Positions 3,061-46,155 of a stretch of DNA of 64,000 bases are shown here, piece after piece. Under the pieces are notes generated by a model. The model searched no databases, was not told where the DNA came from, and saw only the letters and a list, made by a program, of their open reading frames with translations. This DNA comes from an uncultured Candidatus Saccharibacteria bacterium (GTDB taxonomy: Bacteria; Patescibacteriota; Minisyncoccia; Phycocordibacterales; EsbW-18). The number at the start of each line of letters is the position of its first letter. Position 1 is the first letter of the stretch. The stretch is taken from assembly GCA_964447415.1 (NCBI GenBank), contig CAYUSN010000001.1, forward strand, positions 185,727-249,726. Reading direction: 5' to 3'. The position numbers and the translations under genes were made by a program.

Positions 3061-3158
3061 CCAGCGCAGTCCGCGTGCCGCGCCCGCCTTCGTACGAAGG
3101 CGGGCGCGTTTCATTTTCTCTTTATTCTTTTCGGTGCTCCCTATATACTGTACGGACT

Positions 3159-5069
3159 ATGACGGATTCTCCCCGCAAAAGAGGGCCCGGACAGGGCATG
3201 CCGAAAATACCGCTTACGCCGAAGCGTTCATTTTGGACGAATGTCGGCTTCACTATTCTTCTGTTTTTACTTCTGTCGCTTCTGTACTCGGGCTTTTCAG
3301 ATATACAAAAGTCGGAAGAAATTCCCGTGTCACGCCTTGCCGCTGATGTGGTTGCGGGTACGGTGACGACAATTACCGTGCGCGGAGACAAGCTTGAAGT
3401 TACGTATACCGATGAGACGGTAAAACTTTCACAGAAAGAAACAGACGTATCGCTTGCCGAGACGCTTGCTTCATACGGTGTGACGCAGGAACAACTCGCA
3501 AGCACGTCTATTGCGATACAAAGCGAATCAGGGTTCTGGTATTGGATGCTTAATCTCGCGCCGATTATTATTCCGGTGCTGTTTATTGTATTTCTCATCT
3601 GGATGCTCTCACGGCAGGTAAAAGGTGCGGGTATGCAGGCGCTGAACTTCGGACAGTCGCGTGCGCGGTTCTTTGACCCGAAGGATAAACAAAAAGTGAC
3701 GTTCAAAGACGTTGCGGGTGTCAAAGAAGCGAAAGAAGAACTGCTTGAAATCGTGGACTTCCTCAAAAATCCGAAAAAGTTTCTCAAAATCGGCGCGCAG
3801 ATTCCGAAGGGCGTGCTGTTGATGGGTTCTCCGGGGACGGGGAAGACCCTGTTGGCGCGCGCGGTTGCAGGCGAAGCCAATGTGCCGTTTTTCTCCATCT
3901 CAGGTTCTGAGTTTGTGGAGATGTTTGTCGGTGTGGGCGCGTCGCGCGTGCGCGACTTGTTTCAGACGGTCAAAAAGGCCGCGCCCGCCATCATTTTTAT
4001 AGACGAGATTGACGCGGTCGGTCGCGTGCGCGGTGCGGGACTGGGAGGCGGCAACGACGAGCGCGAACAGACACTCAACCAGATTCTTGTGGAGATGGAC
4101 GGGTTTGAACCGCATCAGGAAGTCATTGTGATGGCGGCGACAAACCGTCCCGATGTGCTGGACCCGGCGCTGTTGCGCCCCGGACGCTTTGACCGGCGCG
4201 TACGCTTGGATTTGCCCGACCGCGCGGACCGCGAGGCGATTCTTGCCGTGCACTCAAAAGAAAAACCGCTCGCCGAAGACGTGAATCTCAAAGTGGTTGC
4301 GGAGCGTACGCCCGGATTCTCAGGGGCTGACCTGCAGTCGCTTACCAATGAAGCGGCGATTTTGGCGGCACGCGAAAACCGCAGTAAGGTGTCGCAATTT
4401 GATTTGGTGCGCTCCATTGAAAAAGTAATGCTCGGACCGGAACGCAGAAGCCACATTCTCTCTGAACGCGAGAAAAAAATCACTGCATACCACGAAGCGG
4501 GACATGCACTCGTTGCATCCGTCCTGCCGAATGCCGACCCGATACATAAAGTATCCATCATCGCGCGCGGCCACGCCGGCGGCTACACGCTCTCGTTGCC
4601 GCTTGAAGAGAAGCGTCTGCTTTCCAAAAAAGAATTCGTCGATCGTTTGGCGATGATTCTTGGCGGATACGCTGCTGAGCAGGAAATTTTCGGCGATGTG
4701 ACAACGGGTCCGTCCAATGATTTACAGGTAGCAAGTGCTCTTGCGCGCGACATGGTTGCTCGCTACGGCATGTCGAAAAAAGTCGGGCCGGTGGCGTTCC
4801 ATGATGACGAAGTACACGCGGCTGCAGGCGGTATGATTGTAGAGGGCAAGGAGTACTCGGAGAAAGTCGCGGCTCTTATTGACGAAGAGGTCCGTGAGTT
4901 TGTGGACACCGCGCTTTCGGAGGCGACGGCAGTTCTCAAAAAACACCGTCCGGCGCTCGAGGCGATTGTGGCGCACTTGCTTGAGAAAGAAACCATCGAG
5001 CAAATCGAGTTTGAGGCGCTTTTGCGCGCGCACGGGATTGCCGTGAAAAGCGTGGAGAAGAAGGTATAA
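3159..5069 (+). CDS. ftsH: ATP-dependent zinc metalloprotease FtsH
   Basis: N-terminal TM helices, AAA+ Walker A GSPGTGKT, Walker [12 protein letters not shown], zinc motif HEAGHAL; start moved to MTDSPRKRG (ORF-track start overlaps upstream terminator hairpin). Confidence 0.9.
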
Positions 5070-6159: not shown

Positions 6160-7347
6160 CTAGTGTGCCTCCGCTTGTATGATGCGGTCCAGTGCTACAA
6201 GCGCGGAGATGTTGTGCTGTACGTAGTCAATGCGGATGTCGTACTCATCAAGACTTTCGTGAAATCCGCCGAAGCCCGCGCGCGCGGCGTTTAGCTCACG
6301 GAGTTTTTGTCCGGTGAACTGCGTCTTTATTTGAAATACAGCGGCACTTTCCATGGCAAAGCGCGCGGCGGCGGCGTAGAGGTCGTCGCCGTTTCTTTTG
6401 AAAATATAATATGCGGCGCCGAGTCCTTCCGCGCGCGTGGCGGTCGGTGTGGAGCGCGGAGGATTGTAAAATCCGCCGTTCCAGTCACGTTGATCACCCG
6501 TTTTTCCCGAGTGCTGGGTCGAGAGGATAGATTCGGCGGTCCGTTTTGCGTGCGTGAAATAGAGGTCTTCCGGCTGATGCGCGTACAGTTCATTGAGTGC
6601 GTAGAGAAGCCAGTGGTCGTGGATGAGATCTTTCGTCGGCACGTCTTTGTCGCGCACTTCAATGAGCCAATGTGCGCCGAGATGCGCCGCGTCAATCCAC
6701 TGTTCGTCGCCGTCCACCGCATAGAGGCGCGCAAGCGCGAACAGCGCCTCGCCCGGATAGTATTCCGATTCAAAATCGGTGCGCGCGCCGGTGTCCGCGG
6801 TGATTTTATGCACCGAAAACTCGCCGTTGTGTGTTTGTACGTTCGTCAGGAATGTCGCAAGTTTTTGTGCAAGCGATACGTACTCCGATGCGGCATCCGG
6901 CGCGCCGAGAGCGCGCATCAGCGCGGCGTACTTGGAGAGCGCAAGCACCGCAAGCGCATTACCGCCGAGTTTTATTTCATTGTCTTCTTCAACGCACAGC
7001 GCGTCGGACATGCCGGGACACTCAACCACATGGTCGGTGAGAAATACCAACGCGCGCTCCGCCGCCCGCAGATACTTTTGTTTACCGGTCGCTTCGTAGA
7101 GTTCAAGAAGCGCGTAGGTCGTGCCCGCGTGACGAAGGATGTTGTATGAAGAGGAAGTTTTTCCGGTGACGGGATTGTACTGATACACAAACGAACCGTC
7201 AGTATTCGTGTGGCGTACGAGATAGTCGCCACCGAGTTGTGCTGATCTCAAGTAGGTACTCTCACGCGCGGAAAACCACCACACACCTGCAGAAAGCAGG
7301 AGAACGCCGACAACAATCAGTGCTATACCACGCTGTTTTTTCATCAT
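6160..7347 (-). CDS. Membrane-anchored prenyltransferase/squalene-cyclase-like alpha/alpha-toroid repeat protein
   Basis: N-terminal TM anchor (IALIVVGVLLLSAGVWWF); repeated TDGSF / HNGEF / GDQRDWNGGF motifs typical of terpene cyclase/prenyltransferase repeats; start moved to MMKKQ so as not to overlap the adjacent tRNA. Confidence 0.55.
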   Translation of the reverse strand: MMKKQRGIALIVVGVLLLSAGVWWFSARESTYLRSAQLGGDYLVRHTNTDGSFVYQYNPVTGKTSSSYNILRHAGTTYALLELYEATGKQKYLRAAERALVFLTDHVVECPGMSDALCVEEDNEIKLGGNALAVLALSKYAALMRALGAPDAASEYVSLAQKLATFLTNVQTHNGEFSVHKITADTGARTDFESEYYPGEALFALARLYAVDGDEQWIDAAHLGAHWLIEVRDKDVPTKDLIHDHWLLYALNELYAHQPEDLYFTHAKRTAESILSTQHSGKTGDQRDWNGGFYNPPRSTPTATRAEGLGAAYYIFKRNGDDLYAAAARFAMESAAVFQIKTQFTGQKLRELNAARAGFGGFHESLDEYDIRIDYVQHNISALVALDRIIQAEAH

Positions 7348-7352
7348 ATATG

Positions 7353-7424
7353 TGGGCATGCTAGGATTCGAACCTAGAACCGGCCGTGTATAAGACGGCT
7401 GCTCTACCGTTGAGCTACATGCCC
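7353..7424 (-). tRNA. tRNA with anticodon UAU (AUA-decoding isoleucine-type tRNA)
   Basis: Manual fold of reverse strand: acceptor GGGCATG/CATGCCC, D-arm GCTC-AACGGTA-GAGC, anticodon stem GCCGT/ACGGC with loop CTTATAC (U33-UAU-A37), T-arm CTAGG-TTCGAAT-CCTAG, discriminator A; CCA not encoded. Confidence 0.65.
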
Positions 7425-7480
7425 GAAGATACCTACGTCATTGTGATATCGCCGGCACTTAATTGCAACTTGAGAGGCGC

Positions 7481-7508
7481 AAAAAATCCCCAGGTATCGG
7501 GGATTTTT
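7481..7508. terminator. Bidirectional intrinsic terminator (aaaaatccccaggtatcggggatttttt)
   Basis: Stem flanked by A-run and T-run. Confidence 0.6.
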
Positions 7509-7511
7509 TGT

Positions 7512-7634
7512 GCTACATTTTCTTGTTCTTCTGAATCCAAACCCAGAGTGCGTAGCCGACAAGCGCGAGGTCGACGAACACAAGTAGCTGCATGAGCCAC
7601 ATGAACCCGTAGCTGCCCCCAAAGTATCCCATCA
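7512..7634 (-). CDS. Putative 40-aa hydrophobic micro-protein (MMGYFGGSYGFMWLMQLLVFVDLALVGYALWVWIQKNKKM)
   Basis: Below ORF-track cutoff; found by manual translation of minus strand between terminator and hairpin B; single TM-like helix; no SD. Confidence 0.25.
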
Positions 7635-7747: not shown

Positions 7748-8290
7748 ATGAACGTTCCATTACAATGGCAAAAAGGACTCCGGGACGCCCTCGTCCGAGC
7801 CGGGCAGGGAGATGAAGGCGCGTATCGTGCGGTGTATGACCACCTCATTGACCGCGTGTTTACCTTTGTCCGAGCCCGAGCCCGTTCACGTGAGGAAGCA
7901 ATCGACATCGTTCAAGATGTGTTTGTTGACCTCTGGGGGGCACTGCCGAATTTCCGGTATATGTCAGATGCGCATTTTTACAGTTTCGTTTTTACTATTG
8001 CGAAACGAAAGCTCATCCGGCACTACAACACGCGTACGCACGATTCACTCGATGATATCGATATACACGTTCATCCGAGTGTTGATGCGGACGTGCGCGA
8101 CCCGGACGGCGTGCGTGTGCTAGTAGCACAACTGCCTGAAAAATACCGCGACGTGGTGGAATTGCGTTACTGGTCAGGTCTCTCGTTTGCCGAAATCGGG
8201 CAACAGTTGGGACTTACCGAGAACAACGCGAAGGTTCGCCATCACCGTGCTATGAAGGAATTGGAACGTCTTATACACAACCATGCGTAA
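7748..8290 (+). CDS. ECF-type RNA polymerase sigma factor (sigma-70 regions 2 and 4)
   Basis: Region 2 (IDIVQDVFVDLW) and region 4 HTH (LSFAEIGQQLGLTENNAKVRHHRAMKEL); stop overlaps start of downstream membrane protein. Confidence 0.8.
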   Translation: MNVPLQWQKGLRDALVRAGQGDEGAYRAVYDHLIDRVFTFVRARARSREEAIDIVQDVFVDLWGALPNFRYMSDAHFYSFVFTIAKRKLIRHYNTRTHDSLDDIDIHVHPSVDADVRDPDGVRVLVAQLPEKYRDVVELRYWSGLSFAEIGQQLGLTENNAKVRHHRAMKELERLIHNHA

Positions 8291-9653
8291 CGAACGCACC
8301 ACAGCAGAAAACAGTCTCGAAAAAATCTCCGTAGAACGTCTCTCCGGAGAAGAGCGGGAGCACCTGTGGAGCTCCGTTACAACGGCGCACGCGCGTACCC
8401 CGCGCGTCATCCCATCCCCGTACAGCGGATGGATTATCAGCAGAGTTACTCATTCATATTCTATGATTACAGCAGCAATTGCACTTATGCTCGCGCTTTC
8501 AGCGGGAGCAACCGTAGTCGCCGCGGACGATTCCCGTCCCGGTGACGCATTATTCGCTATCGACCGCGCAACGGAAAATATTCGTATTGTGTTTGCGGGC
8601 GACGACAAAAAAGATGAACTCCGTGTCCGTTTTGCAGAAGAACGGGCGGCGGAAGTTGAATCCATTATTGATGAAGAAGGGGAGCGCGTGCGGCTCTCCA
8701 TGGAGGTTCGGGCAAAATCCTCCGGTGATGCTGCGCCCGAAGCGGCGCTGATGGCGGTTTCCTCAGATGACAGCGATGATACATCTGGCGACAATGATGA
8801 TCGCGACGACTCAGATGACGATGGCGATTCAGATGATGACGGCAACGAGCGCATTGCAAACGGTCTCTCGGTTGCAATCGGCTATCTCACGGAAGTATCA
8901 GCGGAGCTTGAAGCAAAAGGAAACATACAGGCAAAAGAGTCGGTTGACGCGGTTATTGCGCGCCTGAACTCAAAAATCGGTGAGATACCGGAAGAACTCC
9001 GTGTTCGTCTGCGGCTCGACAACGACGGTGATGACGACAAGATTCGTGTTCGCGTACGCACCGAAGGAGAAGGTGATGATGACGACGACGTCGAGGTTCG
9101 CGGAGACGGCGTACGGACGAAGGTGGAGTTCAGGAACGGTGAAATCAGAATTGAAAGCAGGATGGATGACGATTCAGACGATGACTCAGATGATGACGAT
9201 TCCTCAAGTGCCGAACTTGAAATTGAAGCGGACGTGTTCACCGACAAGACAATCGTCAAAGTTGAACGCAACGGTATTAAAGAACTCTTTACCACGACGG
9301 CAAAAACTCGCGCAGAGGTTGTGGCGGCAATTGCCGTGAAGTTCGGTATGACCGAAGCAGAAGTTGATGCGGTGCTTGATTTTGAAATTGAAAATCGCGC
9401 AAGTGTCCAAAATGATCTGTTCTTCTCCGGTTCAAGCGAAAGCGGTTCCGACGACAACAATACCGATGATTCTGAGGGAAGCAAGAGCGGCTCGGGGAGC
9501 GGACTTGGAGGCGGTCTTCTCGGAGGATTGCTCGGTGATGATTCAGATGACGATTCGGATGACGATGACGACTCAGATGATGATTCCGACGATGATGATG
9601 ACGATGATGACGATTTGGATGACGACGATGATGATGAAGAAGACGACGACTAA
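8283..9653 (+). CDS. Anti-sigma-factor-like single-pass membrane protein with extremely acidic poly-Asp/Ser extracytoplasmic domain
   Basis: Translationally coupled to the ECF sigma gene (ATGCGTAA overlap). Charged N-terminus, TM helix ITAAIALMLALSAGATVVAA, then repeated DDSDDD tracts and C-terminal run DDDSDDDDDDDDDLDDDDDDEEDDD. Confidence 0.5.
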   Translation: MRNERTTAENSLEKISVERLSGEEREHLWSSVTTAHARTPRVIPSPYSGWIISRVTHSYSMITAAIALMLALSAGATVVAADDSRPGDALFAIDRATENIRIVFAGDDKKDELRVRFAEERAAEVESIIDEEGERVRLSMEVRAKSSGDAAPEAALMAVSSDDSDDTSGDNDDRDDSDDDGDSDDDGNERIANGLSVAIGYLTEVSAELEAKGNIQAKESVDAVIARLNSKIGEIPEELRVRLRLDNDGDDDKIRVRVRTEGEGDDDDDVEVRGDGVRTKVEFRNGEIRIESRMDDDSDDDSDDDDSSSAELEIEADVFTDKTIVKVERNGIKELFTTTAKTRAEVVAAIAVKFGMTEAEVDAVLDFEIENRASVQNDLFFSGSSESGSDDNNTDDSEGSKSGSGSGLGGGLLGGLLGDDSDDDSDDDDDSDDDSDDDDDDDDDLDDDDDDEEDDD

Positions 9654-10371: not shown

Positions 10372-12570
10372 TTATTCAAAGTGAACTGATGCACGCGAAC
10401 GCACCGCTTCCGCAAGGAGCGGTGTGTTTGTCAATTCAGGGTCTTTCTCGATGAGTGTTCGTGCTTCAGTGCGCGCCGCTTCAACCATTTTGAGATTTTT
10501 GAGCGCTTCCATGCCGACGTCGGTGATGCCCCACTGACGTCCGCCGTACAACTCGCCTGAACCGCGCAGTTCCAAATCTTTTTCTGCGAGTTCAAACCCG
10601 TTTGCCGACGCGGCAAGCGCCTTCAGACGGTCAAGTGTTCCTGCACCGTGTGCTTCGGTGAAGAGGTAGCAGTATGCCTGATGACTTGAGCGCAGGACGC
10701 GGCCGCGGAGCTGGTGGAGCTGGGCGAGTCCGAACCGGTCGGCGCCTTCAATAATGATTGCGGTTGCGTTCGGGACATTCACGCCGACTTCAATCACCGA
10801 TGTGGCGACCAAAATATCAATATCTCCGTCAGCAAACACTTTCATCACGTCTTCTTTTTCGGCAGGTTTCATTTTTCCGTGCACCATGCCGATGCGTGCT
10901 TTAGGAAACACGTCTTTTTTGAGACGCCGCGCTTCTTCCACCACTGATTTCGCGCGCAAGGCGGTTTCTTTTTTCGGGTCCGGCTCATCAATGCGCGGAC
11001 ATACCACAAATACCTGCCGTCCTTCGTCTATGAGTGTCTGGATGTGTGCGTATGTTTTTGCGCGCCCTGATGGGGTAACAATCTCCGTTTTAATTTCTTT
11101 GCGTCCCTTCGGCTGTTCGTCCAACAACGTGAGGTCAAGGTCGCCGTACACGGTGAGCGCGAGCGTTCTCGGGATAGGTGTTGCGGTCATGGAGAGCAAG
11201 TGAGGCATACGCCAAGTGCTGGTGTCGGGTACGTCCGTTTTTTTTGCGAGTCCGGCGCGCTGATTGGTGCCGAAGCGATGTTGTTCATCGATAATCACGT
11301 ATGCGAGGTGTTTGAATTTCACGGTTTTCTGGATGAGCGCGTGTGTGCCGATGAGAATCGGAATCTCTCCGTTTGCAACCCATTTAAGCAACTGTGGGCG
11401 GGAAATATCGGTCCATCCGTTGCGGTTTACTTTTGACGGAAACTTTTTGCATCCCGATGAGGTGATGAGACCGATTTGAATCGGTAAATCTTTAAAGAAT
11501 TCTATGAATGACTCAAAGTGTTGCTGTGCAAGAATCTCGGTGGGTGCCATGTACGCAACCTGCAAATTGCCGAAATCCTGTGTTTTTCCCTCTGCATTTT
11601 TCGGACGGCTCGTCACCACACAATATGCAGTTGCTGCGGCGACGAATGTCTTTCCCGAACCGACGTCTCCTTCAAGGAGGCGCGACATCGCATGCGGCGA
11701 AGCAAAGTTTTCAAGAATATGTTCTATAGCGCGTGTTTGCGCACCGGTCGGTGTAAACGGAAAGCGTTTAATAAAGGCAGAGAGCTCTTTTTTTGATACC
11801 GCGATATCCCATGTCGGCAGGGCATCGGCCTCCGCGCGCTCCTGCTGTTTTTGAAGCTGGATGAAAAATACCTCTTCAAATGCGAACCGTTTGCGTGCGG
11901 CGACCGCATCCGTTTCGGTTTTCGGTGTGTGCATCCACACCAGTGCGGTGGCGAGTGCAGGTAAATTGTATTTTTTCAAGATGTCTTTCGGAATCGGATC
12001 GGAGAGTGTTTCCAGTAATTCTTTCGTGAGTATTTTTTGTATTGCATAGAAAAACCAGCGTGAGGTCACCCCGCGGCTTTCATGGTATACGGGCAGAAAC
12101 GGTAAGTCAGGATATTCTTCCGTTTGTGAAGTAAACAGCGGGCTTCCTGCGAGCGCCTTGTTTCTGTCAGCGTGCGTAATCTCAGGGTTAATCATTGAAC
12201 GCTTGCCGTCTTTTTCTTTTATTTTTCCGGCGACCACAACCAGCGACCCCTCAGGAAACATTTTTGAAATGTAGGGCTGGTGGAGCCACAAGAGATGCAA
12301 ACTGCCTGACTCGTCTTTGAGTGTCGCTTCCGTCATCGGGATTTTACTTTTCCACGCCTTACGCGCCTTTGTTTTTGAAATAACACCGACGACGGACACC
12401 ATGTCTCCGGATGCGGCGGTTTGAATCACGCCCTCATTGGAAGATGAGATGTAACGTGCGGGGAAGTGATAGAGTAAATCACGTAACGTGACCACGCCGA
12501 GTTTCTTGAGCGCTTTTACTTGAAAGTCGGAAAGGCGAAAGCGTTTTGTAACGGGCTGACTGAGTTCCAT
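10372..12570 (-). CDS. recG: ATP-dependent DNA helicase RecG
   Basis: Wedge/OB N-domain followed by superfamily-2 helicase motifs (GDVGSGKT, DEQHRFG, TATPIPRT, helicase C-terminal QLHQLRGRV); start moved to MELSQPV by codon counting. Confidence 0.85.
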   Translation of the reverse strand: MELSQPVTKRFRLSDFQVKALKKLGVVTLRDLLYHFPARYISSSNEGVIQTAASGDMVSVVGVISKTKARKAWKSKIPMTEATLKDESGSLHLLWLHQPYISKMFPEGSLVVVAGKIKEKDGKRSMINPEITHADRNKALAGSPLFTSQTEEYPDLPFLPVYHESRGVTSRWFFYAIQKILTKELLETLSDPIPKDILKKYNLPALATALVWMHTPKTETDAVAARKRFAFEEVFFIQLQKQQERAEADALPTWDIAVSKKELSAFIKRFPFTPTGAQTRAIEHILENFASPHAMSRLLEGDVGSGKTFVAAATAYCVVTSRPKNAEGKTQDFGNLQVAYMAPTEILAQQHFESFIEFFKDLPIQIGLITSSGCKKFPSKVNRNGWTDISRPQLLKWVANGEIPILIGTHALIQKTVKFKHLAYVIIDEQHRFGTNQRAGLAKKTDVPDTSTWRMPHLLSMTATPIPRTLALTVYGDLDLTLLDEQPKGRKEIKTEIVTPSGRAKTYAHIQTLIDEGRQVFVVCPRIDEPDPKKETALRAKSVVEEARRLKKDVFPKARIGMVHGKMKPAEKEDVMKVFADGDIDILVATSVIEVGVNVPNATAIIIEGADRFGLAQLHQLRGRVLRSSHQAYCYLFTEAHGAGTLDRLKALAASANGFELAEKDLELRGSGELYGGRQWGITDVGMEALKNLKMVEAARTEARTLIEKDPELTNTPLLAEAVRSRASVHFE

Positions 12571-12672
12571 ACGTCCATTGTACCTCAGGGGTGTGAAGTA
12601 TTTCTTGTTTGACGAACCGTTTATCAGAGCGTACCCTCGTTTTTGGAGATGTACCTGACAAGGAGGATTCTT

Positions 12673-12780
12673 ATGCAACAACTGCTTCAGGCAAGTGCTG
12701 TGTTCGGCATCATTGCGCTCATCATCTGGGGGATGTGGAGGGTCACATTCCTCGGTTTCCGAGAAGGAGGACAACGATGA
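12673..12780 (+). CDS. Putative 35-aa membrane peptide (MQQLLQASAVFGIIALIIWGMWRVTFLGFREGGQR)
   Basis: Manual translation; AAGGAGGA SD 7 nt upstream; stop overlaps downstream ATG (ATGA); GC-rich codon usage. Confidence 0.3.
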   Translation: MQQLLQASAVFGIIALIIWGMWRVTFLGFREGGQR

Positions 12781-13331: not shown

Positions 13332-13543
13332 AAAAAAGTCGTGCGATGGCCACCGCTGTCGCACGCACAATCAGAGTTAACCGGATAGCAGCCGGAGCAC
13401 TCTGATTAACCCGTCTATGAGAGACAGACCGTAGTACAGTCTGTCTCATCCAAGACAAAATTAAGAACGGAGAAAAAAGCTAATCACATTTTTTCTTTTG
13501 TTCTGCTCAACTAAGTGAAGCATTTATGTTTCACTTTATATGT

Positions 13544-15196
<1,653 letters not shown>

Positions 15197-15365
15197 AGTC
15201 AAATGACAATCGGTATTTGTCTCTCAAGGACAATACTCTAGGCGGTCGATATCGTGCACTGCAATTGAGTGCATGATGGATGCGGCACAGCATCCTTAAA
15301 ACCGTGCCGGGCATCCGGGAAAGACCGGAAAAATGAGCAGAACAAAAGAAAGAACGTGATATAAA

Positions 15366-17381: not shown

Positions 17382-17455
17382 GCGCGTGTAGCTCAGCTGG
17401 TTAGAGCACGTCACTGATAATGACGAGGCCGAAGGTTCGAGTCCTTCCACGCGCA
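17382..17455 (+). tRNA. tRNA-Ile (anticodon GAU)
   Basis: Cloverleaf: GCGCGTG/CACGCGC acceptor, D-arm GCTC-AGCTGGTTA-GAGC, anticodon loop CTGATAA, T-arm GAAGG-TTCGAGT-CCTTC, discriminator A. Confidence 0.85.
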
Positions 17456-39453: not shown

Positions 39454-40263
39454 ATGAAAGAAATTTCAGGGGATAGGCCGCTCTCTCGGGTTCAAAAACT
39501 GCGCTATTTGGCTGTTAACTTCGTACGGAATCTGTGTGGCATACGTTTTCCCGGAAAAACTGTTTTTCGGTACTTCACCGTTGGTTCCAAGGCCCCCGAA
39601 AGTCCTGCGCGGGAATACCTTGATGCGTTCATGCGAGAGATGATGCCGTCTGTTCTTCCAACCGGCACAATTTCAGTGTGTGACATCGGATGCGGAACCG
39701 CGTACATGCGCTCAATTCTTTCTGGTGCGGGATATGCGGGAGAATATGTCGGGATTGATATTGTTCGTGAGCCGAAACTCGATGAGAAGTCTGTCCCGTC
39801 ATTTTCAATGACGTTTGTGCAAAACGATATATGTACGTACCGGTCACCGCGCCGGTTTGATCTTGTGCTTTCAAACACATCACTCGAACATATCCCCGAT
39901 GATTTTGCCGCTGTACAGAAGGCTTATGAGTTGTGCGCGGAAAACGGTGTAGAGGTGCATATTGTGCCGAGTCACTGGGCGCTGCCGCTGTATTTGTGGC
40001 ACGGGTACCGGCAATATACGCCGGCGCGTCTGAGGCGGATGTTTTCAGGGACACCACACACCATATATCGGCTCGGCGGTTTTGTGTCATGGTGTGTACA
40101 TTTCTTTTGTATTACCGTACCGGAACGGATATTCGGGGTATCTTCGTTCCGAAGGGGGGCGCTTTACCCAAAAGTAAAGAGGTGGGCAAACAAAGCAGAT
40201 CGTTTTTTGCCATTTTGGTCAGTACTATATGCTGTCGTCGTGTTTCATGGAAATCGCACCTAA
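39454..40263 (+). CDS. Class I SAM-dependent methyltransferase
   Basis: VCDIGCGTAYM motif I. Confidence 0.7.
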   Translation: MKEISGDRPLSRVQKLRYLAVNFVRNLCGIRFPGKTVFRYFTVGSKAPESPAREYLDAFMREMMPSVLPTGTISVCDIGCGTAYMRSILSGAGYAGEYVGIDIVREPKLDEKSVPSFSMTFVQNDICTYRSPRRFDLVLSNTSLEHIPDDFAAVQKAYELCAENGVEVHIVPSHWALPLYLWHGYRQYTPARLRRMFSGTPHTIYRLGGFVSWCVHFFCITVPERIFGVSSFRRGALYPKVKRWANKADRFLPFWSVLYAVVVFHGNRT

Positions 40264-40276
40264 AAAAACACACGTG

Positions 40277-41386
40277 ATGTTTGTGCTGCCGAGTCTGCTT
40301 CCCGGCGGTATTGAGAAGCACACGCTGAAATTACTCAGACACTTTAATCGAGAAAAACTTTCTTTTTCACTCGTCACACTTTTTGACCGACCGAACAGAC
40401 CTGATTTGTTTGGTGAGGTGCCGGGTGATGTGGTGGTTTACCGTCTCGCATTTGGAACGGGAATAGATATTTCAGGGTGGGGGAAGCTGTACACGCTCTT
40501 AAAAAAAGAGAGACCGGATATCGTGGTGTCGAGTATGTTCTCCGCCAATACAATTGCTCGACTGCTTAAACCGCTTCTCGGATATCACGTGGTTACACGT
40601 GAACACAATATATACGGCGAAAAAAACATCTTCCAGCGGTTTATTGACATGACGCTTTCACCGCTATCGGACGTTATCGTCGCAGTTTCTTCGTCCGTTG
40701 CAGACTTTTTTTCCAAACAAGCATGGGTAAATCGTAAAAAAATCACCGTGATTCATAACGGGGTGGATATTGAGGCAATTAACGCATTTCTTCAGGAGAA
40801 AGGAGAGAGTGAGATACAGCGTGTGCGTCAGGAACTTGGACTGGAAGCAGAGGAAAAAATAATTCTGAACGTCGCACGTCTGAAGCCGCAAAAAAATCAT
40901 GAGCTGCTTATCGCAGCATTCCAACTGTTTGTGAAAGAAAACCCTTCATATCATCTTGTGATACTTGGTGATGGGGCAGAAAAAGGTCGTCTGCTGCAGC
41001 TGATAGCGGACCGCGGACTGAAAGATGTTGTTCATCTGCTCGGATACCGCGACGACGTGTTCTCGTGGTATGTGGCATCTGATTTTTTTGTGTTGACGTC
41101 AAAACATGAAGGGTTTCCGAATGTGGGGGTGGAGGCGATGGCATTCGGTGTGCCGCTTGTCTCAACGAGCGTACCCGGGGTAGATGAGTTTTTGGATAGC
41201 GGTAAGAACGGACAGCTCGTAAAAGATCAGCCCAAGGAAGTGCTTGCGGGCATGGTGAGCCTCTCCAGTTTGTCGTCTGAAGAGAAACAACAGCATCGCG
41301 ACGCGTGTCGCACGACCGCTATGAGATTCGATATCCGACGTATTACAGAAGAATATGAAAATATTTTTGAACAGATTTCTGAATAG
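40277..41386 (+). CDS. Glycosyltransferase family 4 (start uncertain, 40247 or 40277)
   Basis: EGFPNVGVEAMAFGVPLVSTSVPG motif. Confidence 0.75.
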   Translation: MFVLPSLLPGGIEKHTLKLLRHFNREKLSFSLVTLFDRPNRPDLFGEVPGDVVVYRLAFGTGIDISGWGKLYTLLKKERPDIVVSSMFSANTIARLLKPLLGYHVVTREHNIYGEKNIFQRFIDMTLSPLSDVIVAVSSSVADFFSKQAWVNRKKITVIHNGVDIEAINAFLQEKGESEIQRVRQELGLEAEEKIILNVARLKPQKNHELLIAAFQLFVKENPSYHLVILGDGAEKGRLLQLIADRGLKDVVHLLGYRDDVFSWYVASDFFVLTSKHEGFPNVGVEAMAFGVPLVSTSVPGVDEFLDSGKNGQLVKDQPKEVLAGMVSLSSLSSEEKQQHRDACRTTAMRFDIRRITEEYENIFEQISE

Positions 41387-42161
41387 GTTGCGTGAAAGCC
41401 TCATGCTTGCCTCGCTTGGTGATGGGTGGTTGTATCGCGGAGTTTTGTTTTTAAAACTTTTTTTTAGATTCGGGTTTCATCCTATTTCGATGCATCTCCG
41501 TGCGAACGGTGTTTCATTCTTACTTTCTGTTCGTTCCCACGAAGAGCTGATGCTCTTGTACGAAATTTTCTGCCGTCGAATATACGACTTTTCCCTCGCG
41601 TCTGATGCGGAGTATGTGGTCGACTGCGGGGCAAACTGCGGCATATCCTCACTGTTTCTGTACACGTTGTATCCGAGCGCGCGTATTCTTGCCGTAGAAC
41701 CGAACCCCGCGCTTTTCCCGCGTCTCCAAGAAACGGTCCGGCCGTACAAAAACATACTACCCGTACAGTGTGCGGTCGGCGCCGTCGACGGAGAGGCTTC
41801 CTTCTTCGTCTCTCCGCATGCGACCACCGCGTCATCTCTTTTACAGCGTTCCTCCGAGGACAAAGAGTACAGAGTTCCGGTTAAAACACTTAAGACAATC
41901 CTAACTGAGCACGGATTTCCCCGTGTGGATGTGCTTAAGTTTGATATCGAGGGCGCTGAGGAACACCTGTTTACCGACTCTAATACGAAAGATAAGATAC
42001 GGTTTTGTGTGGGTGAGGTGCACGAAGATCTTATGGGTGTATCTTTACAAGAATTTTTGTCTACAGTGCAATCGGGTTTTAGTGTGTCTTTAGTGCCGAC
42101 AAAAAAACAAAAACGGTTTATTATGTCAGCACATACTATCGCAGAAAAAAGTAATCCATGA
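41355..42161 (+). CDS. FkbM-family methyltransferase
   Basis: VVDCGANCGISSLF motif characteristic of FkbM MTases; start may be internal (~41403). Confidence 0.65.
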   Translation: MKIFLNRFLNRLRESLMLASLGDGWLYRGVLFLKLFFRFGFHPISMHLRANGVSFLLSVRSHEELMLLYEIFCRRIYDFSLASDAEYVVDCGANCGISSLFLYTLYPSARILAVEPNPALFPRLQETVRPYKNILPVQCAVGAVDGEASFFVSPHATTASSLLQRSSEDKEYRVPVKTLKTILTEHGFPRVDVLKFDIEGAEEHLFTDSNTKDKIRFCVGEVHEDLMGVSLQEFLSTVQSGFSVSLVPTKKQKRFIMSAHTIAEKSNP

Positions 42162-43054
42162 TTTCCGTAGTAATCGCAACATATAATCGAGCGCACACGA
42201 TAGCGCGATCACTTGAAAGCGTGCTGCGACAGACGCATCGCGACATCGAAGTATTGGTGATAGATGACGGCTCAATGGATGGAACTGATGAGGTAATAAG
42301 AAAAATTACTGACTCGCGCGTGCGATGTGTTAAATTGGAAAAAAATCAGGGGGCTTCTGTGGCACGCAACCGCGGGATTAAGGAGGCGAATGGGGACTAT
42401 ATTCTCATATGGGACAGCGATGATGTGCTGTACCCTAATGCATTGGAAAAAATTCTGGACGTTTTTAAAAAACACCCTGAATATTCCGTCGTGTCTGCTC
42501 CTGCACATGTGATGTCTGACGGCAGGGAGGTAAAATATCCGGAATTTTCTCAAGGGGAGGTTGTACTCGCTGATATTTTGCTCAAAAGACTTCCGAGCAA
42601 CGAGAAGATTCGTATCGCGAAAACATCCGTGATGAAACAGGTATCATACAAAGCCCGCAACATCGATTTTTTGGTAAACGTGGAACTAATTGAACAGGGC
42701 AGATGGTTCCATTTTCAGGAATATCTCGGAGAGGTATATAACGACTCAAAAAAAGGCTCGCTTACATCGCTTCGAAAAAAAAGAAGCGCACAGCGTTCCG
42801 TTGAACGCGCACCGTACCTTGCGCACTTTCTGGAAAAACACGGTGAATATCTCAAAAAAATAAGCCCGACACGATATGCCGACCACTGTTATGGTGCGGC
42901 GACGGGGTTTTTACTGATCGGTGACACATCGCGCGCGCGTCGGTATGCAAGAGACGCAGCAAAAAATCACCCGGTGTATATCTCATACTGGCTTCTATAC
43001 ACTCTGGCGTATCTGCCGGGTGGCTGGGTGGTCCTAAGGCTTTTTTACCGGTGA
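42158..43054 (+). CDS. Glycosyltransferase family 2
   Basis: ISVVIATYNR...VLVIDDGSMDGT...DSDD motifs. Confidence 0.85.
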   Translation: MISVVIATYNRAHTIARSLESVLRQTHRDIEVLVIDDGSMDGTDEVIRKITDSRVRCVKLEKNQGASVARNRGIKEANGDYILIWDSDDVLYPNALEKILDVFKKHPEYSVVSAPAHVMSDGREVKYPEFSQGEVVLADILLKRLPSNEKIRIAKTSVMKQVSYKARNIDFLVNVELIEQGRWFHFQEYLGEVYNDSKKGSLTSLRKKRSAQRSVERAPYLAHFLEKHGEYLKKISPTRYADHCYGAATGFLLIGDTSRARRYARDAAKNHPVYISYWLLYTLAYLPGGWVVLRLFYR

Positions 43055-43086
43055 CAGGTCGAAGGGTGGTCAGAAGGATTATGCGA

Positions 43087-44358
43087 CTAAACAATATCTC
43101 TGATGTGTCTGTATGCTAAAAATTTGAACATACTCACAATAGTAATCATACGAAACACCTCCATTCCCAGAATTGCATACAGTGCACCGAGAATTCCATA
43201 CAGCGGAAGTAAAATAAAAAGAAGGACAATTTTTACCAAAGGAACAACTGTTTGGAGGACATACAAAGATCGCTGTTTCATCTGTCCGACGAGAAATTGC
43301 TGAAAAAGCGTTGCGGGGAAAAATAATATGACCAGTGAAAATATCTGCGAGTACCTGACAGCTTCCATATAGTCGGGAAAAAAGAGTTTAAAAAAAAGTG
43401 GTGCGACAAGTATATAAAAAATAACAATTACAATCGATACGAGAAACACCAGAAAAGCTTTGCGCGGTATTGATCTGTATAGATCAGATGTATTGGTACC
43501 GCTGAATTTCGGCAATGCCATCTGTGCGAGTAGCTTACTACCGAACCGAAGTTGTTGGGGAACGGCAAGTGCGATGACGTATAATGCCATTTGAAGAGCG
43601 CCGAGATAGTGGAATACCAACAGGCGGTCCATTTGGGTGGAGATCATCCCCAAAACATTCATGAGACTCAGATGTTTTCCGTACGAAAGCGTTTGGGCAC
43701 TGTGGGATTCTTGGGGTTTGAATTTTTTAATGACACCTATATATAAAAACATCGTGACGACAACACTTGTTCCAAAGAAAGCCAGTACCAAAAAAGGTGT
43801 TATCTCAGTGAGGAGTGCGGTAACACCTACGGCGAACATTGGTGCAATCGTTGCGATGATACCGTATTGTGTCTCGCGTCGGAAATCTTTTTTTCCAATC
43901 AAAAACGAGCTATAGAACCCTCCGCCTGAAAAGGGAAGAACAGCGCCAATAATAAAAAGGGACCAACCGAGCATCACATTGCCGTTTAAAAAGTAATAGA
44001 TGGAGATTCCCCATGCGACAATGGTCATAAGTACGCCCCACCGCATGAATGTCTTAAACCCGCCGATGAGTGCTCCTTCATTGCCTCGGGCGACTGCTTG
44101 TATGACAGCCGTTCCCATACCGGTGAGAGAGAATGCAGTTACAATACCCGCGAGTGATTGGACGAACTTGTACGTACCGAACGCTTCTTTTGAGATAACA
44201 TTAGCGAGTATAAGTGTCAGCAGAAAACCCGACCCCGCGCTGACCATGCGGCCGATGGTAATCCAAAAACCGCCTTTGGCGAGGTATACCATGTCAGTGC
44301 GGGTGTATTTTTCGCTCCACCGCAACGCATTTAACACCACCTCTTTTAGTGGATTCAT
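43087..44358 (-). CDS. Polysaccharide biosynthesis protein / oligosaccharide flippase (Wzx, MOP superfamily)
   Basis: ~12 predicted TM helices, 423 aa, typical Wzx length and hydrophobicity pattern. Confidence 0.75.
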   Translation of the reverse strand: MNPLKEVVLNALRWSEKYTRTDMVYLAKGGFWITIGRMVSAGSGFLLTLILANVISKEAFGTYKFVQSLAGIVTAFSLTGMGTAVIQAVARGNEGALIGGFKTFMRWGVLMTIVAWGISIYYFLNGNVMLGWSLFIIGAVLPFSGGGFYSSFLIGKKDFRRETQYGIIATIAPMFAVGVTALLTEITPFLVLAFFGTSVVVTMFLYIGVIKKFKPQESHSAQTLSYGKHLSLMNVLGMISTQMDRLLVFHYLGALQMALYVIALAVPQQLRFGSKLLAQMALPKFSGTNTSDLYRSIPRKAFLVFLVSIVIVIFYILVAPLFFKLFFPDYMEAVRYSQIFSLVILFFPATLFQQFLVGQMKQRSLYVLQTVVPLVKIVLLFILLPLYGILGALYAILGMEVFRMITIVSMFKFLAYRHIRDIV

Positions 44359-44461
44359 ATGAGTCGTAGTGTAACGTACACTGTTCCTTTTGTCCCTATT
44401 TCCAGTTCTTCTTGTGTGCTACCATCTCATTTGAAAATAAAGATAAAACGGTTGGATTTTT

Positions 44462-45193
44462 TTGGTGCCTATGGAAAAAATATTTGATAGCAAGTACGGT
44501 AGATTTACATTTGATGTAAACACCAACATAAGAATGGCGCGTATTTTTGAAAAGACCGGTTTTTTTTATTCTGAAAATATCGACATAATGTTGAAACACG
44601 TCTCTTCCGACAGTGTTGTCTTCGATATAGGGGCACATGTGGGCACAACTGTTGTTCCTTTAGCCAAGGCCTCACGTAAGGTACATGCTTTTGAGCCGGT
44701 TCCGGAAAACAGGAAGTATCTCTATAAAAATATAGAGCAAAACAAAATAACCAATGTTGAGGTTCACGAATGTGCACTGGGGGCAAAAGAGGGAACGGTG
44801 ACCATGGTAACTCCCGAACCTACAAACACCGGCGCGTTCGAAATTAAGGAGGGGGGCACTGTGCCACTTAAAACATTGGATAGTCTTAATTTGGGTTATG
44901 TGGACTTTATTAAGATTGATGTAGAGGGGCACGAACCCGAAGTATTCGAAGGGGCAAAAAACACAATTGAACAGTACAAGCCCCTCATTTTTTTTGAGTT
45001 TTTTTTGCCGGGTCTGAGGAAAAACTACAAACACCCACTTACAAAAATTCGCAACGCCCTCAAAGGTTACAAATTTTATGTTAAAGGACACAGGTTCCTT
45101 TACTTATGGATGATTGTTTTTTGGTACGAACCAAGGCTGTTTTTAACCAACCGTGGGGGAATCGTACTTGACGTGCTCGCTGTCCCTCGTTGA
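44462..45193 (+). CDS. FkbM-family methyltransferase
   Basis: VFDIGAHVGTTVVPLAK motif. Confidence 0.7.
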   Translation: MVPMEKIFDSKYGRFTFDVNTNIRMARIFEKTGFFYSENIDIMLKHVSSDSVVFDIGAHVGTTVVPLAKASRKVHAFEPVPENRKYLYKNIEQNKITNVEVHECALGAKEGTVTMVTPEPTNTGAFEIKEGGTVPLKTLDSLNLGYVDFIKIDVEGHEPEVFEGAKNTIEQYKPLIFFEFFLPGLRKNYKHPLTKIRNALKGYKFYVKGHRFLYLWMIVFWYEPRLFLTNRGGIVLDVLAVPR

Positions 45194-45254
45194 AAAGTGT
45201 GAATAGCATCATTCCAAGAATATTTCTCGCCAAGGGTTTCCAACTGGGCATATA

Positions 45255-45983
45255 ATGTATTGTATGAATCCGAAAGAATTTTTTATTGCACATATTGCGC
45301 AGGAACTGGGGGTGGGGCAGGCGACGCGAATCGTGGATTTAGGCAGCGGACAGTCACGCAACTTCCTACCGCTTCTAAAACGATTCCCGAAACTCTTATA
45401 TGTCGGCGTGGAACCGCGAAAGGAAGATGCCGATGCCGCACAGGCGCTTCTTTCGCATTTTCCTAATGCGCGTATCTATAACCAACTTGCGTATGAACCG
45501 CTTCCTGATGAGGCGCCGTTTGATATCTGTGTATCCCTTAGCGTACTTGAACACGTGAAGCACCTTGAGTGGTTTTTAAAAAACAGCGTCCGGCTGACAA
45601 AAAACGGCGGACATATCATTCATCGCTACGATCTCGGTCACGCGCTTTCTCCGTCATCACTGAAGGAACGTCTGCAGGTTTTTTTGGGAAATAACCTTCC
45701 GTTTCTTTTGTCTGAGAAAAAATACGTGTGTTATCTTGACCCTGAAAAAGTCGGACACATTCTTGAACGAGAAGGGGCACACGTGACGCATACAACGTAT
45801 CACCAGATGCCAAATCATAAACGTTTCCTCCAAACGTTCGTTGCCGACTCGGAAGAAAAGAAGGCACTTACCGAGAGAATTCTTCAATGGGAACTTGATG
45901 TGTCACCCCACCTCTCGGGCATGTCTAAAACTGAGCGTGAGGCGCTGTTTCCTGCCATCGCGCTATGGGCGCAGAAGCGGTAA
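45255..45983 (+). CDS. Class I SAM-dependent methyltransferase
   Basis: IVDLGSGQS motif I, LSVLEHV. Confidence 0.7.
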   Translation: MYCMNPKEFFIAHIAQELGVGQATRIVDLGSGQSRNFLPLLKRFPKLLYVGVEPRKEDADAAQALLSHFPNARIYNQLAYEPLPDEAPFDICVSLSVLEHVKHLEWFLKNSVRLTKNGGHIIHRYDLGHALSPSSLKERLQVFLGNNLPFLLSEKKYVCYLDPEKVGHILEREGAHVTHTTYHQMPNHKRFLQTFVADSEEKKALTERILQWELDVSPHLSGMSKTEREALFPAIALWAQKR

Positions 45984-46155
45984 CCCTATTTTCGGCGGAG
46001 TCTCTACCTGTGGTATAGTGTTTTCCGTATGCATCCCGTTAGAGATTACTCACGTATGTTCGTGTCTAATATTCAAAAAATGTCGACATATTGTTCGTGT
46101 GCACACGAGGGTGTGATAACGATGGAAACGCACCGCGTTTCTTATCTCTAACGGG

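Follow-up and report, generated by a model that had tools for sequence, protein, structure and literature searches.

A tRNA-Ile(UAU) as a probable substitute for lysidine-dependent AUA decoding

In the 64-kb window analyzed here (64,000 nt of contig CAYUSN010000001.1; "the window" denotes this whole stretch), a 72-nt gene on the minus strand at 7353-7424 encodes a tRNA-Ile with the anticodon UAU. We consider it probable that this gene specifies a functional minor tRNA-Ile which reads AUA by means of a genomically encoded U34 and which, within a subclade of Paceibacteria/Minisyncoccia, has replaced TilS and its substrate tRNA-Ile2(CAU). The best FtsH relatives of the window, 63-68% identical, belong by name to Taylorbacteria, Nomurabacteria, Kaiserbacteria, Paceibacterota, Paceibacteria or Minisyncoccia, and these names place the host in the class Paceibacteria (now Minisyncoccia at NCBI) of the Patescibacteria, otherwise called Candidate Phyla Radiation (CPR). 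The initial annotation had called a genomic UAU anticodon rare, a view that stands for the bacterial literature, where tRNA-Ile(UAU) genes are on record for 17-19 genomes (Bifidobacterium, Neorickettsia and a few Mycoplasma; PMC8450103, PMC4013482) and where a 2026 preprint on the evolution of isoleucyl-tRNA synthetase (IleRS) still speaks of "rare cases", but one that fails within this clade, in which the UAU tRNA is the rule and no oddity of a single genome.

Sequence and fold of the tRNA gene

ARAGORN placed a minus-strand tRNA-Ile (anticodon tat) at 7352-7424, and the Rfam model RF00005 (gathering score 29) matched the same strand end to end at 7424-7353 (model positions 1-71 of 71; 74.4 bits, E 2e-14), without flagging a single non-canonical pair. 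The anticodon UAU, the loop C-U-UAU-A-C and the cloverleaf proposed in the initial annotation were borne out by both programs, and by the covariation described below, with the gene lying on the minus strand. Read on its own strand, the gene runs GGGCAUG-UA-GCUC-AACGGUA-GAGC-A-GCCGU-CUUAUAC-ACGGC-CGGUU-CUAGG-UUCGAAU-CCUAG-CAUGCCC-A, comprising 72 nt up to the discriminator A73, with the CCA end not encoded. Its anticodon loop is C32-U33-U34-A35-U36-A37-C38, and as read from the sequence, the positions compatible with isoleucine identity include A73, A35, U36 and A37, the site of N6-threonylcarbamoyladenosine (t6A); position 38 is C vs. A38 in the tRNA-Ile of E. coli. The minimum-energy fold computed with ViennaRNA was an extended alternative rather than a cloverleaf (z = -4.4), and for this reason the covariance model and the comparison of homologues serve as our basis for the structure, the minimum-energy fold being left unused as evidence.

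A G+C-rich hairpin with A and T runs on its flanks, situated at 7476-7514, is terminator-like on both strands (on the plus strand by scan and on the minus strand by eye) and bounds the tRNA gene on its upstream side. Within the interval 7425-7475 between this hairpin and the tRNA, we noticed by eye weak -35/-10-like hexamers on the minus strand (TTGCAA-17 nt-CACAAT); given that they match 8 of 12 positions, under the threshold of the scan, we can only infer a candidate promoter from them.

Conservation among relatives

To place the gene among its relatives, we made use of 80 ftsH loci, one genome per GTDB species and exclusive of the genome of the window itself, for which up to 10 kb on each side of ftsH was examined (~20 kb at most per relative, as compared with 64 kb for the window). 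A tRNA-Ile(tat) gene was found beside ftsH in 26 of these loci, including all 19 that ranked best, whose FtsH shares 63-67% identity with that of the window; in 11 of the 26 it is encoded on the ftsH strand, 58-133 nt beyond where the ftsH match stops. A scan of JGI metagenomes with the anticodon arm of the window tRNA, in which either pyrimidine was allowed at position 34 (GGTAGAGCAGCCGTCTYATACACGGCCGG), yielded 23 matches, all 23 of which carry T34 and were called tRNA-Ile(tat) even though C34 was permitted; the same pattern had no match among the viral contigs of IMG/VR. The order recG - tRNA - ftsH recurs in several metagenome loci (e.g. L085 and L100; L numbers denote loci), and by tblastn a RecG homologue is present in 26 related loci and an SmpB homologue in 25, the latter adjoining ftsH in those checked. 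The conserved partners of the tRNA are ftsH, smpB and recG.

Alignment of 45 distinct tRNA-Ile(UAU) sequences to the cloverleaf showed standard pairs in 99.6% of paired cells, vs. 71.8% for shuffled and 27-45% for slid controls, along with a covariation score of 0.693 vs. 0.174 upon shuffling (none of 500 shuffles reached 0.693) and at most 0.137 in slid controls. Both sides change in 16 of the 21 pairs, and C32, U33, U34, A35, U36 and A37 are invariant in these 45 homologues. Compensatory changes together with an invariant loop argue for a working tRNA under selection and not a pseudogene. We also observed that the first pair is C1-G72 instead of G1-C72 in 9 of the 45 sequences, always compensated (L006-L008, L010-L012, L015, L016 and L018).

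tilS and tRNA-Ile2(CAU) at the ftsH locus

In many bacteria, tilS lies directly upstream of ftsH. Several of our loci have an open reading frame (ORF) with a PP-loop motif in exactly this position; five of these ORFs were scanned with Pfam, all of them matching PF01171 and one of the five carrying the TilS substrate-binding domain as well. A hidden Markov model (HMM) of TilS, built on seven PP-loop ORFs that included these five, matched an ORF on the upstream side of ftsH in 12 loci (L024, L031, L033, L038, L043, L053, L061, L062, L071, L075, L079 and L080), with tilS directly adjoining ftsH except in L053 and L080, where one short ORF intervenes. None of these 12 loci has a UAU tRNA. Conversely, the TilS HMM found no match in the 26 UAU loci, in the 64-kb window or in the 23 metagenome loci; the window also lacks any ORF with an SGGxDS motif and any tRNA(CAU) (by both ARAGORN and Rfam), and no CAU tRNA was seen in the UAU loci within the DNA examined around ftsH. 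Altogether, tilS and a UAU tRNA occurred together in 0 of 103 loci examined; the simplest reading is replacement of the CAU tRNA with loss of tilS. The loss of TilS that had been raised in the initial annotation is thus favored locally, both by the absence of a PP-loop/TilS ORF and of a tRNA(CAU) from the 64 kb and by the gap upstream of ftsH; we regard it as likely.

The place upstream of ftsH in the UAU loci is taken by smpB (accompanied by the transfer-messenger RNA gene in the window), by the gene of an S1-domain protein or by small genes with no known function; in L013, for instance, a divergent ORF of ~150 residues at this site is smpB. We also entertained a remnant of a tilS-hpt-ftsH operon in the UAU loci and rejected it, the ORFs of ~200 residues upstream of ftsH being pilin-like or unknown and not hpt.

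Downstream of ftsH, three of the tilS loci (L024, L033 and L038, comprising a Moranbacteria-type, a Doudnabacteria and an unclassified Patescibacteria locus) carry a CAU tRNA of the Ile2 type; these CAU tRNAs are 79, 72 and 85% identical, respectively, to E. coli tRNA-Ile2 and 62-67% identical to the elongator tRNA-Met. By the NCBI names of its best 120 matches in the protein database, the TilS of L024 is that of Candidatus Moranbacteria, these matches being too close to inform on other Paceibacteria. The Moranbacteria order sits inside the class Minisyncoccia, and a neighbor-joining tree of FtsH has one split with every UAU locus on the same side, the L024/L031 group lying next to it. Based on this arrangement, we surmise that the ancestral order would have been tilS-ftsH-tRNA-Ile2(CAU) and that, after the Moranbacteria lineage had split off, the CAU tRNA would have been replaced by, or mutated to, the UAU tRNA, with loss of tilS.

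Meaning and use of AUA

The frequency of AUA, which the initial annotation had proposed to check, is by no means negligible in the window, with ATA accounting for 9.2 per 1000 codons and 16% of isoleucine codons (42 long ORFs). To read the meaning of this codon, we set the FtsH genes of the UAU group (27 in number) against 54 FtsH sequences from the outgroup, column by column. Opposite the 242 ATA codons of the UAU group, the outgroup columns hold I in 41%, V in 20%, L in 15% and M in 3%; the corresponding values are I 42%, V 19%, L 18% and M 4% for the 609 ATT codons and I 40%, V 18%, L 18% and M 5% for the 360 ATC codons, as opposed to M 34%, L 18%, V 11% and I 11% for the 406 ATG codons. 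As the ATA columns resemble those of ATT and ATC and are unlike those of ATG, AUA means isoleucine in this group. Since G34 of tRNA-Ile(GAU) cannot read AUA, the UAU tRNA is the evident decoder.

The median share of ATA among isoleucine codons was 21.7% in the UAU loci vs. 7.5% in the tilS loci, a comparison among phylogenetically non-independent loci with a mechanical ORF set; the difference survives a crude adjustment for G+C content at third codon positions (GC3), in which the two groups differ. As a single instance, ATA makes up 16% of isoleucine codons in the window at a GC3 of 0.56 and 6% in L024 at a GC3 of 0.55.

Charging and discrimination against AUG

In the published gene tables of Minisyncoccus archaeiphilus (MNSC_03180) and of the bin PMX_810, both from this class, the IleRS harbors PF19302 (DUF5915) and no zf-FPG_IleRS domain; the type-1 IleRS of E. 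coli has the reverse, with zf-FPG_IleRS and no DUF5915. This domain content makes a type-2 IleRS probable for Paceibacteria, in line with the scenario for Bifidobacterium and Neorickettsia. These tilS-less bacteria possess a eukaryote-type IleRS (Taniguchi et al. 2013, PMC3575796), and an IleRS of the E. coli type charges the UAU tRNA poorly, a problem for which Mycoplasma mobile has found its solution in Arg865 (PMC3575796). We therefore picture, by way of a working scheme, that the transcript would gain CCA and t6A at A37, that charging would be carried out by a type-2 (eukaryote/archaeal-like) IleRS tolerant of U34, and that misreading of AUG might be limited by any of several candidates, namely the C32/C38 loop, ribosomal discrimination like that of M. 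mobile, competition by tRNA-Met, or modification of U34.

The last of these candidates amounts to a rival view of the fidelity step only, in which U34 is modified by an enzyme (e.g. to pseudouridine) and the modification confers discrimination between AUA and AUG. Eukaryotic tRNA-Ile(UAU) has a pseudouridine-containing anticodon and works with the same type of IleRS, and the strictly conserved loop with its unusual C38 could well be the recognition element of such an enzyme. On the other hand, we found no wobble-modification gene among the annotated genes of the 64-kb window, and U34 is unmodified in M. mobile, the only bacterial case to be analyzed chemically (PMC3575796). In our estimate, enzymatic modification is possible but rather less probable than its absence.

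Somewhat more doubtful still is the broad extension of our proposal, whereby the whole sampled subclade, save for the Moranbacteria-type lineage, would be devoid of lysidine, and the C32/C38 loop, or a U34 modification that recognizes this loop, would be a new device for avoiding AUG. If true, no other bacterial group known to decode AUA in such a manner would come near this lysidine-free subclade in size.

Redundant decoding and points against replacement

The proposal that the UAU tRNA has replaced TilS must also be weighed against the notion that tilS and tRNA-Ile2(CAU) are kept outside the window, with the UAU tRNA serving as an additional or transitional decoder of AUA. This notion derives credence from Lactobacillus casei, Cyanothece and Ferrimonas, all of which carry both systems (Taniguchi et al., PMC3575796), from the fact that just 64 kb of the genome was read, and from the standing of TilS itself, which is commonly portrayed as essential to bacteria and nearly universal among them and is found in ~98% of annotated bacterial genomes (PMC12514573). 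It does not fit well with our locus data, as evidenced by: 1) the absence of tilS, in the window as in each of the 26 UAU loci, from its usual site upstream of ftsH, as opposed to its presence there in 12 other loci that uniformly lack the UAU tRNA; 2) the failure of tilS and the UAU tRNA to co-occur at any locus; 3) the fixation of U34 in all of the close metagenome relatives; and 4) the higher use of AUA in UAU than in tilS loci at comparable GC3. On balance, we deem redundant decoding unlikely.

Several observations nevertheless weigh against replacement. Our survey spans 64 kb of this genome and ~20 kb at most per relative, and tilS with tRNA-Ile2(CAU) may lie elsewhere; the split that sets off the UAU loci comes from a single-gene FtsH tree and has a bootstrap value of only 50 of 100; the gene table of Minisyncoccus archaeiphilus contains neither K04075 nor PF01171 but covers only ~46% of the genes; no ileS was found in the window or in the 105 loci, as judged by KMSKS and HxGH motifs and by all ORFs of at least 800 residues; and one UAU tRNA (L030, 11867-11941) is 85% identical to the window tRNA-Ile(GAU) and keeps A38.

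A "tRNA(Ile)-lysidine synthase" listed for PMX_810 was considered and set aside as a probable Prokka mislabel of a PP-loop protein resembling N-acetyl-sugar amidotransferase. The protein in question, PMX_810_sub_00091 (PMC10936435 supplement), shows QueC, NAD-synthase and PAPS-reductase PP-loop domains, with an N-acetyl sugar amidotransferase as its best UniRef match; the lysidine-synthase label is probably wrong and exemplifies overcalling of tilS in Patescibacteria.

Two remaining views can be dealt with briefly. A pseudo-tRNA, or a tRNA brought in by a phage or mobile element, with no decoding role in the host, might be suggested by a context unlike that of most relatives, the gene being inverted with respect to ftsH with 2.3 kb of poorly conserved genes in between, but in light of the full-length 74-bit match, the strong covariation and invariant anticodon loop, the conserved ftsH/recG synteny and the absence of viral matches, we find this view highly improbable. 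Equally far-fetched is a reassignment of AUA, or charging of the tRNA with an amino acid other than isoleucine (e.g. methionine, as in many mitochondria), which the codon columns contradict.

Origin of the UAU tRNAs and the C32/C38 loop

With regard to origin, the window tRNA-Ile(UAU) is 60% identical to the tRNA-Ile(GAU) of the same window, and this value rules out a recent duplication of the GAU gene as its source. The window-type UAU tRNA is closest to the CAU tRNAs of Patescibacteria (66-70%), which fits an origin by a C-to-T change. The UAU tRNA of L030 also shares the anticodon stem of the window tRNA-Ile(GAU); from this GAU-like pattern, the UAU tRNAs may lack one common origin, and that of L030 may derive, separately from the main type, from a GAU gene whose G34 changed to U. 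We offer these origins as suggestions, drawn as they are from molecules of 72 nt.

The pair of residues at positions 32 and 38 tunes binding to the A site. C32/C38 is found in 46 of 50 UAU tRNA gene copies (the window plus L003-L105), with A38 in L030, L039 and L046 and U38 in L003, vs. C32/A38 in all 12 CAU tRNAs and in the GAU tRNA of the window.

Relation to known systems and significance

Decoding of AUA by an encoded tRNA-Ile(UAU) independently of tilS is already established as a kind of system; what the present case adds is its phylogenetic breadth, the contrast between tilS and UAU at the ftsH locus and the C32/C38 signature. We found no paper linking Patescibacteria/CPR with lysidine, TilS or tRNA-Ile(UAU) in the literature searched, and the mention of some CPR lineages among UAU carriers in the initial annotation could not be traced to a source there. 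The present case is akin to that of Bifidobacterium and Neorickettsia (PMC3575796, PMC8450103) in having an encoded UAU as the decoder of AUA, in that tilS is not found where expected, and in the C-terminal DUF5915 of a type-2 IleRS, as seen in two members of the class of the host; it differs in comprising a very large uncultivated clade and not a few genera, in the position of the tRNA at the presumed ancestral tilS-ftsH locus and in the C32/C38 residues of most copies. With the tRNA-Ile2(UAU) of M. mobile (PMC3575796) it has in common the reading of AUA by U34 next to A37 (t6A) in a reduced genome, and the CAU-to-UAU origin by a C-to-T change proposed for M. mobile fits the positional replacement seen here; M. 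mobile has features of its own, to wit a type-1 IleRS with a Trp-to-Arg change at 865, a ribosome that rejects AUG and an unmodified U34, and the type of IleRS likely differs in our case. In comparison with the canonical TilS/tRNA-Ile2(CAU, lysidine) system of the Moranbacteria-type, Doudnabacteria, Kazan and Peregrinibacteria loci, the ftsH neighborhood and the decoding of AUA are shared, but the window has no TilS ORF, U34 stands for C34 and, in the window and most copies, C38 for A38.

In Bacillus subtilis, a suppressor of tilS deletion carries a G34-to-U change in tRNA-Ile1, according to accounts of that work (Fabret et al. 2011, as given in PMC8450103; Kohrer et al., PMC3919564). The L030 tRNA, with its A38 and its likeness to the window GAU tRNA, conforms to this pattern of GAU recruitment, unlike the window tRNA, whose closer identity to Patescibacteria CAU tRNAs than to its own GAU tRNA speaks for another origin.

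The hosts Nanoarchaeum and Korarchaeum are ultra-small or reduced and devoid of the C34-modifying enzyme. As in our proposal, Nanoarchaeum equitans and Korarchaeum cryptofilum have tRNA-Ile(UAU) in place of tRNA-Ile2(CAU) (PMC8450103), the differences being that they belong to another domain, the Archaea, and that the enzyme lost is TiaS and not TilS.

Were the proposal to be true for a whole branch of the CPR, itself among the bacterial groups richest in species, lysidine-free decoding of AUA would be far more common than textbooks say. The ftsH locus keeps both states, tilS-ftsH-tRNA(CAU) and ftsH-tRNA(UAU), and as such offers a natural series for the swap of a decoding system; with Minisyncoccus archaeiphilus as a cultured member of the class, the avoidance of AUG by U34 and the role of C38 are open to direct testing. 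As for annotation, a missing tilS or Ile2 tRNA should not lower the completeness assigned to genomes in this clade.

Neighboring genes

The window has only three tRNA genes by ARAGORN and Rfam, those with UAU, GAU and CAG anticodons, and its other genes include those for 16S rRNA, an ECF sigma factor, cell-wall proteins and glycosyltransferases, secA, obg and gatB. On the plus strand, smpB (1760-2206; Pfam SmpB, E 1.2e-49), which fills the place upstream of ftsH, is followed by the transfer-messenger RNA gene (2321-2704; Rfam RF00023, 77.2 bits) and then by ftsH itself (3075-5069; Pfam Peptidase_M41, AAA and FtsH_ext, with 80 related loci), the true start of which is probably the ATG at 3159. 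The transfer-messenger RNA was detected by Rfam and missed by the corresponding ARAGORN search. The tRNA gene lies 2.3 kb from ftsH and in the opposite orientation, with poorly conserved genes in between; recG, which in relatives forms the second conserved flank of the tRNA, is on the minus strand at 10372-12774 (Pfam RecG_wedge, DEAD and Helicase_C). The tRNA-Ile(GAU) gene, decoder of AUU and AUC with a C32...A38 loop, is located at 17382-17455 on the plus strand (ARAGORN, Rfam).

Directly downstream of the tRNA and on the same strand (minus, 6160-7347) is a gene for a membrane-anchored, alpha/alpha-barrel-like protein of 395 residues, which the initial annotation had described as terpene-cyclase-like. 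This description was not upheld, as Pfam and NCBIfam gave no match to a terpene-cyclase family, even below threshold; the matches that did appear, all sub-threshold, were to alpha/alpha-barrel families (GH127, GH88, GH76, pectate lyase 2 and C5-epimerase in Pfam; the cyclase domain of LanM and AGE epimerase in NCBIfam), and no PDB sequence matched at E <= 1. A homologue of this gene adjoins the tRNA only in the closest relative (L100), and the adjacency is incidental. Its longest ORF opens at an ATG at 7359, overlapping the last 7 nt (the 3' end) of the tRNA, and in view of this overlap translation more likely starts at the ATG at 7347 or 7344. The two genes share the same direction and may be co-transcribed.

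Other observations

Two of the related loci have a tRNA-Ser with the A-starting anticodon ACT as called by ARAGORN (L008, 14145-14232, minus strand; L014, 14871-14960, plus strand), each near a tRNA-Ser(GCT); A34 anticodons such as ACT are very rare in bacteria (PMC4013482). In the window, the 16S rRNA gene (13537-15204) is 1668 nt long and has insertions relative to the bacterial model, e.g. 36 nt near model positions 77-82. The remaining 49 kb past it (to 64000) holds no 23S rRNA gene, and the tRNA-Ile(GAU) gene lies 2.2 kb downstream of the 16S gene, with an oppositely oriented protein gene in between; taken together, these features make the rRNA genes appear unlinked. At 7748-9653, the gene for the ECF (extracytoplasmic function) sigma factor is followed by one for a 456-residue protein, with overlapping start and stop; this protein, which has a DUF5667 domain and whose long tail is extremely rich in Asp, may be an anti-sigma partner. 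Finally, the region 40000-48000 has a G+C content of 0.46-0.47 vs. ~0.53 elsewhere and includes an ORF that matches Wzy_C (O-antigen ligase-like), and it may be acquired DNA.

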